Below are positions 53,067-53,207 of a stretch of 61,653 bases of DNA, in pieces. The stretch is from contig CAYPXF010000007.1 of the NCBI GenBank assembly GCA_964415025.1, positions 1 through 61,653 on the forward strand. The letters run 5' to 3'. The DNA is from an uncultured Gammaproteobacteria bacterium (GTDB lineage: Bacteria; Patescibacteriota; Patescibacteriia; UBA10025; JAHIVO01). Made by a program: the position numbers and the translations under genes. Under the pieces are notes generated by a model. That model did not search any database. It saw only the letters and a list, made by a program, of their open reading frames with translations, and was not told the DNA's origin. Each line of letters opens with the position of its first letter. Within the stretch, counting starts at the first letter, position 1.

Positions 53067-53207
53067 TTATTTCTTTTTGCGGGTCGTCTTTTTCGCAGCT
53101 GGTTTTCTTTTTTTGGTTGCCTTTTTCTTTGCGGTTTTCTTTTTGGCTGTGGTTTTACGTTTTTTCGGAGCTGCTTTCTTTTTGGTTGACCGTTTGCGTT
53201 TTGCCAT
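53067..53207 (-). CDS. Histone-H1-like Lys/Ala/Thr-rich microprotein (46 aa), missing from the ORF track
   Basis: MAKRKRSTKKKAAPKKRKTTAKKKTAKKKATKKRKPAAKKTTRKKK; SD GAAAGGAGGTGA; downstream terminator. Confidence 0.85.
   Translation of the reverse strand: MAKRKRSTKKKAAPKKRKTTAKKKTAKKKATKKRKPAAKKTTRKKK

Follow-up and report, generated by a model that had tools for sequence, protein, structure and literature searches.

The 61,653-nt stretch of DNA that we analysed as a whole (the window) contains a bona fide monocistronic micro-gene that carries signals for strong expression and encodes a lysine-rich peptide of 46 residues. We consider it about an even bet (probability of roughly 0.5) that the product is a disordered polycation of high abundance, coating nucleic acid in the manner of a histone H1 tail. 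The peptide (MAKRKRSTKKKAAPKKRKTTAKKKTAKKKATKKRKPAAKKTTRKKK; 46 codons on the minus strand) is composed of 22 K, 5 R, 8 A, 7 T, 2 P, 1 S and 1 M, without D or E and without aromatic or large hydrophobic residues, and presents a mass of 5.3 kDa, a net charge of about +26 and a K+R fraction of 59%. The first-pass annotation had counted 46 aa, of which 22 are Lys, five are Arg and none is acidic, which is exact for the ORF at 53067..53207 (minus strand). The features of the gene are the following:

53294..53304, minus strand: extended -10 promoter TGTGCTATACT (TGn + TATACT), putative function
53208..53287, minus strand: predicted 5' untranslated leader, about 80 nt between the putative start of transcription and the ATG
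53214..53225, minus strand: Shine-Dalgarno sequence GAAAGGAGGTGA (12 nt), 6 nt 5' of the ATG
53067..53207, minus strand: coding sequence of the 46-aa Lys-rich peptide, ATG to TAA, stop included
53016..53046, minus strand: perfect 14-bp hairpin CTTAAAAGCGACG-TTAAC-CGTCGCTTTTAAG, 20 nt after the stop codon
52975..53004, minus strand: second hairpin (9 bp) followed by U7, from folding; probable intrinsic terminator

The peptide and its expression signals

The genome to which the window belongs measures 1.27 Mb with 46% G+C and contains the micro-gene as a single copy. None of the 14,619 ORFs that reach 25 aa in this genome exceeds the K+R fraction of the peptide; only a 29-aa ORF that has no Shine-Dalgarno sequence equals it, and the window ORF is the only one of the two with a ribosome-binding site. 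The composition is H1-like, as had been claimed: Lys alternates with Ala, Thr and Pro spacers and acidic residues are missing, as in the tail of histone H1. Repeated (A/T)KKK units had also been reported; three exact units are indeed present (at residues 8, 21 and 26), but at the DNA level TRF identified a weak 12-nt repeat of 2.2 copies and no real tandem repeat. Two prolines are located mid-chain (P14 and P36). The AlphaFold2 model presents a single short helix (residues 20-32, 13 residues) and no fold (pTM 0.34), and we found no signal peptide, hydrophobic face or amphipathic pattern in the peptide. The product is predicted to be intrinsically disordered and to lack any specific motif. The DNA of the gene showed no variants in the DNA runs that contain it, which were obtained from microbial-mat samples.

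The 11-mer that constitutes the putative promoter has only six occurrences in the genome. It is kept, with C or A at its last but one base, in five relatives (G012, G014, G010, G008 and G006), where it lies 95-160 nt upstream of the orthologous ATG, and closely similar variants are found with the orthologues of G002 and G009. The leader measures 80-150 nt across eight genomes of the family, the values for the orthologues being 89-143 nt. The Shine-Dalgarno sequence, which had been described as the strongest of the window, proved to be a 12-mer (GAAAGGAGGTGA) whose 10-nt core, AAGGAGGTGA, is the full complement of the anti-Shine-Dalgarno sequence and is found once in this contig, at the micro-gene. 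Seven copies of this core exist in the genome, the others preceding the genes of HU, Hsp20, a Gly-rich 93-aa protein and a few small membrane proteins; these sites presumably mark a small set of top-expressed genes. They are located at C30:3469, C20:6640 (-), C13:10060, C2:100474, C16:3580 (-) and C25:5900, and the C25 copy has no start codon within 12 nt. Among the family orthologues, the Shine-Dalgarno sequence CGAAAGGRGGTGA is kept in eight out of eight. The first-pass annotation had called the peptide highly expressed: the expression signals are strong, as this would require, but translation to a high level is what we infer from them.

Downstream of the coding sequence, a perfect terminator belonging to the gene had been claimed, and we found the perfect 14-bp hairpin followed by the 9-bp hairpin and U7. 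The 14-bp hairpin was missed by a simple terminator scanner because its U-run is drawn into the stem. Together with its neighbor it folds at -22.5 kcal/mol (z = -6.5; 0/200 shuffles as good), and its motif is unique to the micro-gene in this genome. The flanks of the hairpin (CTTAARRGCGRY...RYCGCTTTTAAG) are kept in eight genomes of six genera, with one compensatory change of an A-U to a G-C pair. The second hairpin (52975..53004) overlaps a promoter-like site of the next gene. Across six genera (loci L013, L014, L016, L017, L012, L262 and L263), the 3' hairpin is better conserved than the coding sequence; it could have a function beyond termination, e.g., as an element of RNA stability or binding. 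In three genomes of the genus g3 (L013, approximately 3150-3245; L014; L016), the leader contains a conserved element, CCATTGTGAYGTG, that can pair with ATCACAATGG across the start codon to form a stem of 8-10 bp that would mask the ATG, and a translational control by this pairing is possible. We found no clear counterpart of this element in the leader of the window gene.

The next gene in the same direction encodes an HhH-GPD protein (MutY/Nth-like). Its start is probably the ATG at 52959, and its mRNA may be leaderless because this ATG lies 6 nt past a TATACT -10 box (52957-52971, minus strand). If the ORF were instead opened at an earlier TTG (to 52998), it would extend across the terminator of the micro-gene. 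Elsewhere in the window, the product of the gene at the position of rplW (L23), just upstream of rplB (42213-42710, minus strand), has 165 aa, with a long N-terminal extension rich in Lys and Glu (MGILDKIKSPKRSEDKKKQKKAAVDK...). Core ribosomal proteins of this genome thus carry basic low-complexity additions as well.

Orthologues, reading frame and transcription

Using synteny and pattern scans, we identified orthologues in 8 of the 17 genomes of the family, spanning six genera, with one copy in each. The retrieved loci were scanned with our own script for a Shine-Dalgarno sequence, at least 45% K+R and no D or E. With 8/17 genomes positive, the gene may be dispensable, or our search patterns may be too narrow. 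The promoter, in the form TG(T)GCTATA(C/A)T, the Shine-Dalgarno sequence and the 3' hairpin are kept in all eight orthologues, the promoter as a close variant in G002 and G009, and the least conserved element of these genes is the coding part itself. It encodes 28-53 aa with 59-71% K+R, starts with MAK(R/K)K or MPKKK, and never contains D, E or aromatic residues; its K and R are separated by A, T, V, P, G, S and I only. The description of the gene as stand-alone is borne out by its own promoter, Shine-Dalgarno sequence and hairpins and by the same anatomy in relatives.

In the family, the micro-gene is found near a cluster of rdgB (Ham1), HhH-GPD, alpha-beta hydrolase and uppS genes. Its exact slot changes within this cluster, and it therefore behaves as an independent transcription unit: the gene on its 3' side can be the HhH-GPD gene, a membrane protein gene or uppS. 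We had considered that the orthologue might lie directly upstream of the HhH-GPD gene in every relative, and this was rejected, since the family orthologues are not adjacent to the HhH-GPD gene and lie 1-3 kb from it. A metagenome scan with the neighboring HhH-GPD protein yielded no relative closer than 56% identity, and a same-genus comparison is therefore not available for the window's own gene.

We then analyzed the reading frame. Among the frames of the window gene, the annotated one alone is free of stops and acidic residues. Each KKK is written AAA-AAG-AAA, so that AAG breaks the A-runs; the longest A-run is 7 nt, compared with 9-10 nt when the Lys codons are shuffled (P = 0.027). Selection at the codon level extends beyond the window gene: in a set of 37 micro-genes, 32 have a longest A-run below the shuffle mean, and 14 reach P <= 0.05 with none in the opposite tail. 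Long A-runs cause slippage of polymerases and ribosomes, and their avoidance therefore fits selection for a faithful expression of the annotated frame. A same-genus pair of the Doudnabacteria type (L121 and L122, from G147 and G174) carries a 24-codon micro-gene in which 9 of 75 nt differ, while the flanking non-coding DNA is about 98-99% identical. The coding changes are synonymous among K and R codons, or replace T by I or V and K by G. In this pair the charge is kept and the peptide sequence is not, which speaks for a weak constraint on sequence. One of the two loci also presents insertions of palindromic GC-rich elements nearby.

Evidence of transcription comes from the G002 orthologue; the window's own locus, known from microbial-mat metagenomes, does not occur in the RNA runs that were searched. 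In four metatranscriptomes of bioreactors or sludge (X4, X5, X6 and X9), short RNA contigs cover the micro-gene unit of G002 and nothing else: coverage extends from position 3096 of L013, about 10 nt past the predicted start site, to the hairpin loop at 3373, and the flanking genes have zero RNA depth. The depths obtained in G002 were the following, tuf being located in the same 20 kb:

X4, word depth: micro-gene 28-64, tuf 14
X5, word depth: micro-gene 21.6, tuf 4-5
X9, word depth: micro-gene 4, tuf 7-8
X6, depth: micro-gene contig 3.1, no X6 contig on tuf

Contig depth is a crude measure of expression, and read as such these values show that the G002 orthologue is a discrete and abundant transcript of about 280 nt. 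For the G028 orthologue, RNA is represented by a single exact contig of 66 nt.

Distribution of oligolysine micro-genes

A search anchored on the Shine-Dalgarno sequence, the approach proposed by the first-pass annotation, was productive both in the family (the 8/17 genomes above) and in the taxonomic class, where the pattern of Shine-Dalgarno sequence and start matched 75 of 151 genomes, relative to 5 for a reversed control. Among the sampled pattern loci, 22 of 30 were true micro-ORFs of 13-61 aa, which places the lower bound at about one third of the genomes of the class. Since the anatomy recurs in relatives and the pattern is found in 75/151 genomes against 5 for the control, the feature of the window is far beyond chance. 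Another family of the class contains a 61-aa twin, reached via a weak protein match, with its own promoter, Shine-Dalgarno sequence and terminator.

In five or more further families of the class, a homologue of Endonuclease Q stands tail-to-tail with the micro-gene (loci L020, L022, L023, L026 and L031, in genomes G028, G126, G046, G086 and G029, respectively), assigned by similarity to PDB entries 5zb8 and 7k30 (E = 1e-52, about 420-434 aa). In the genome of the window, Endonuclease Q is encoded on a different contig (C22:1733-2977) and has no micro-gene as a neighbor. In two different families, micro-genes of 20 aa and 13 aa (L056 and L057; G126:C11 and G029:C13) are located just 3' of a tRNA-like sequence that we read by eye as tRNA-Cys(GCA).

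Beyond the class, other CPR classes carry micro-genes of 10-52 aa. We then scanned one genome per prokaryotic species with the exact pattern. Among the 121 matches listed (120 loci), at least 62 are K/R micro-ORFs, of 6-121 aa. Among the matches listed, the bacterial sources of these micro-ORFs are Patescibacteria, Planctomycetota, Methylomirabilota/Rokubacteria, Acidobacteriota, Actinomycetota, Omnitrophota, Bdellovibrionales and Gammaproteobacteria, and the archaeal sources are Woesearchaeota and Bathyarchaeia. One of the recovered genes, from a Saccharimonadales genome, encodes MAKKKKKKKK. The recovered genes share the same anatomy: their own promoter, a strong Shine-Dalgarno sequence, a start of the MAKKK type, a coding part of 10-120 codons of K with A, T, V or P, and their own terminator. 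We defined the class informally by its own promoter and terminator, a strong Shine-Dalgarno sequence, a length not above about 120 codons, a K+R fraction of 45% or higher and the absence of acidic residues, and the window gene presents all of these features of anatomy and composition. The micro-genes of CPR add to them evidence from RNA, a 3' hairpin conserved in the family and, in other CPR families, a conserved position beside Endonuclease Q. In the literature that we searched, we found no publication on stand-alone oligolysine micro-genes.

This distribution bears on the suggestion that the peptide belongs to ultra-small or dormant CPR cells. The link is unsupported, because the same micro-genes are found in Planctomycetota, Methylomirabilota, Actinomycetota, Acidobacteriota and archaea, large-genome phyla included, and because the G002 orthologue is transcribed at a depth similar to that of EF-Tu in active bioreactor and sludge communities. 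One Planctomycetota MAG (L144, DAOWBV010000046.1) presents two micro-genes in tandem, of 28 aa and 23 aa, at positions 1534 and 1916, about 380 nt apart; one of them ends in GCRC. The pattern of a strong Shine-Dalgarno sequence followed by MAK(R/N)KK also catches conserved proteins of 42-58 aa in Firmicutes (e.g., MAKRKKDPSTVGLSSANVEGQGTTNQETGR...KKKKNM), from Bacillus and Paenibacillus records (L176, L185, L215, L174 and others). These resemble small spore proteins and have no relation to the oligolysine class.

Candidate roles of the peptide

We searched for known families to which the peptide might belong. The hmmscan of Pfam-A returned no family at E <= 1, with no match to the profiles of Hc1 (PF07432) and Hc2 (PF07382). 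The winged-helix domain of linker histones H1/H5 (PF00538) is absent: the peptide has 46 aa, no Pfam match and one 13-residue helix. None of the NCBIfam models, ribosomal proteins included, matched the peptide. In particular, NF038053 gave no match at E <= 10 for the window peptide or two relatives, and 9 bits for the 121-aa planctomycete relative, with a curated cut-off of 80. For bS22 (PF08213, COX24_C/AURKAIP1), the peptide had no Pfam match, and a six-frame search yielded nothing over the cut-off in the window's genome and 20 relatives; the genome of Corynebacterium glutamicum, used as a control, was detected by the same search. The window gene does not belong to the Hc1, Hc2, H1, NF038053 or bS22 families by any model tested. 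A search of 5.8 billion proteins with the single peptide produced no match at E <= 0.01, and a two-sequence profile produced three matches (E of 4-10) among 8000 candidates sharing words. Phmmer found nothing in the PDB for the peptide, and a protein search of 40 relatives returned one weak match. None of the 600 matches of a closer-alignment pattern search passed tblastn, and the bare KKKxxKKK pattern was no more common than its reversed control, being informative only when clustered. Similarity tools fail on the micro-gene because of its low complexity, as the correction for composition cancels the score. It had been anticipated that gene callers would miss the gene, and the exact peptide and those of 10 relatives are in fact absent from a collection of 15 billion proteins.

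The reading that we favor is that of a polycation acting on nucleic acid. Such a peptide would bind by non-specific electrostatics, and by screening phosphate charges it would condense or stabilize DNA and/or RNA. As judged from the orthologues, selection keeps the charge density, the lack of acidic and bulky residues, the MAK-R/K-K start and the strong expression signals, while length and exact sequence drift freely. Such a pattern, in which charge density and expression are constrained and neither sequence nor length is, marks a non-specific polyanion binder, as exemplified by the H1 tail and by the basic tails found on nucleoid proteins of bacteria. The Shine-Dalgarno 10-mer shared with the abundant nucleoid protein HU counts in favor of this reading; that HU is already encoded behind an equally strong Shine-Dalgarno sequence in the same genome counts against it. 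The observations are compatible with DNA, rRNA, polyphosphate or another polyanion as the putative target.

The peptide resembles the C-terminal tail of eukaryotic linker histone H1 and, among bacterial proteins, chlamydial Hc1/Hc2, Pseudomonas AlgP and the Burkholderia-type NF038053 (hist_H1_lk_Burk) by its Lys residues spaced with Ala, Thr, Pro or Val and its lack of acidic residues, as well as by disorder, a very high positive charge and an expected charge-driven binding. In contrast to H1, Hc1/Hc2 and AlgP, however, it consists of the tail only, without a globular or oligomerizing domain, and H1-like proteins measure 120-200 aa or more, whereas the peptide has 46 aa and its class 10-121 aa. 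The resemblance to H1 is one of composition and not evidence of common descent. Synthetic oligolysines (K8-K32) have a charge similar to that of the peptide, with its 22 Lys and 5 Arg, but they are man-made, whereas the polycation of the window is encoded by a gene and includes A, T and P spacers. Two reports (PMC4991294, PMC5460023) describe that oligolysines of at least 16 Lys compact plasmid DNA into stable particles and that oligolysine coats protect DNA objects from low salt and nucleases.

The main rival to this reading, which we regard as rather unlikely, is that the gene encodes an unannotated ribosomal microprotein, the CPR counterpart of bS22/eL41/mS38 (or of bL37 or Thx), lodged in an rRNA pocket, with a high expression that would match the number of ribosomes. 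Annotation regularly overlooks tiny ribosomal proteins rich in K and R: the bS22 of Borrelia was unannotated, has about 30 aa with 61% K+R and occupies a structurally conserved 16S/23S pocket, at h2/h27/h44/h45-H68, and its authors expect bS22 in more bacteria (PMC10618245). The window peptide, with 59% K+R, shares with these proteins its stand-alone state, its tiny size, a K+R fraction of about 60%, a high expression and a frequent lack of annotation (PMC10618245). No recognizable bS22 was found in the window's genome or 20 relatives, so this slot is not visibly filled; the RNA depth of G002 is in the range of the mRNAs of tuf and ribosomal proteins, and the helix modeled by AlphaFold2 at residues 20-32 would also agree with a ribosomal role. 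However, bS22/eL41/mS38 have a fixed length and are nearly invariant within lineages, as shown for bS22 in Borrelia with one substitution across three groups (PMC10618245), whereas the micro-genes vary five-fold in length, with 28-53 aa inside a single family and 10-121 aa over all members, and their coding parts undergo repeat expansions and fast drift. The mid-chain prolines (P14 and P36) and the lack of hydrophobic or aromatic anchors in the window peptide also speak against a ribosomal pocket, since bS22 and eL41 carry such anchor residues. Neither PF08213 nor any NCBIfam model of a ribosomal protein matches the peptide. Finally, Actinomycetota as a phylum have bS22, and one Actinomycetota genome contains a 42-aa member of the micro-gene class, a comparison made at the level of the phylum.

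The remaining alternatives are all less probable. High charge alone would bind any polyanion, and the peptide could serve polyphosphate, acidic polymers of the envelope or, once exported, a host cell; for the last of these, every CPR bacterium in cultivation is stated to be attached to a host cell (PMC12206443). We consider such a target improbable, given the lack of a signal peptide, hydrophobic face or amphipathic pattern in the peptide and of a transporter gene linked to the micro-gene, and the presence of the same class in free-living phyla and archaea. It is slightly more improbable still that the RNA is the functional product, as a purine-rich small RNA or leader-type element, and the frame incidental. 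The hairpin and untranslated flanks are conserved above the coding part and the G002 transcript is short and discrete, as expected of such an RNA, but every lineage retains a perfect Shine-Dalgarno sequence, correctly spaced from the ATG, the frame is always open and free of acidic residues unlike the other two, substitutions are swaps between K and R or among A, T and V, and the placement of AAA and AAG avoids slippery A-runs. We give almost no credence to a Lys-codon leader peptide that would sense the supply of Lys-tRNA, or stall on polylysine, and control read-through into the HhH-GPD gene. An ORF with 22 Lys, located 20 nt before a terminator hairpin and followed by a co-directional gene, invites this reading; however, the convergent Endonuclease Q in at least five other families leaves nothing downstream to control, and this tail-to-tail position therefore rules out a leader-peptide role. 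Within the family the downstream gene varies, the next gene in the window has its own promoter-like site, and the RNA contigs of G002 stop at the hairpin with the neighbors at zero depth. We found no alternative pairing of the hairpin that could form an antiterminator. The leader peptide, or attenuator, was rejected on the convergent Endonuclease Q, the varying neighbors and the stop of the RNA at the hairpin, and is already largely refuted by these gene contexts.

Should the polycation reading hold, its reach could be wider than one gene. We tentatively propose, as a view that is less likely true than false, that oligolysine micro-genes constitute a widespread and undescribed class of highly expressed, genetically encoded bulk polycations of prokaryotes that would do part of the charge neutralization on DNA and rRNA in genome-reduced CPR bacteria and DPANN archaea, a task that would be done elsewhere by polyamines, Mg2+ and larger nucleoid proteins. 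As part of this proposal, the class would be invisible because it falls below the length limits of gene callers, is subject to low-complexity filtering and is destroyed by trypsin, which shreds Lys-rich peptides of this kind. If made at the level that its signals indicate, the peptide would be among the most abundant molecules in these cells, and none of the annotations and protein databases that we checked contains it. It would be a further constituent of the minimal nucleoid or ribosome in CPR bacteria, a group said to represent 15-50% of bacterial species (PMC13278184). Along with the similar peptides of other phyla, it would constitute a new class of microproteins. HMMER and composition-corrected BLAST are blind to this class, and a search anchored on the Shine-Dalgarno sequence and start, combined with synteny, readily finds its members.
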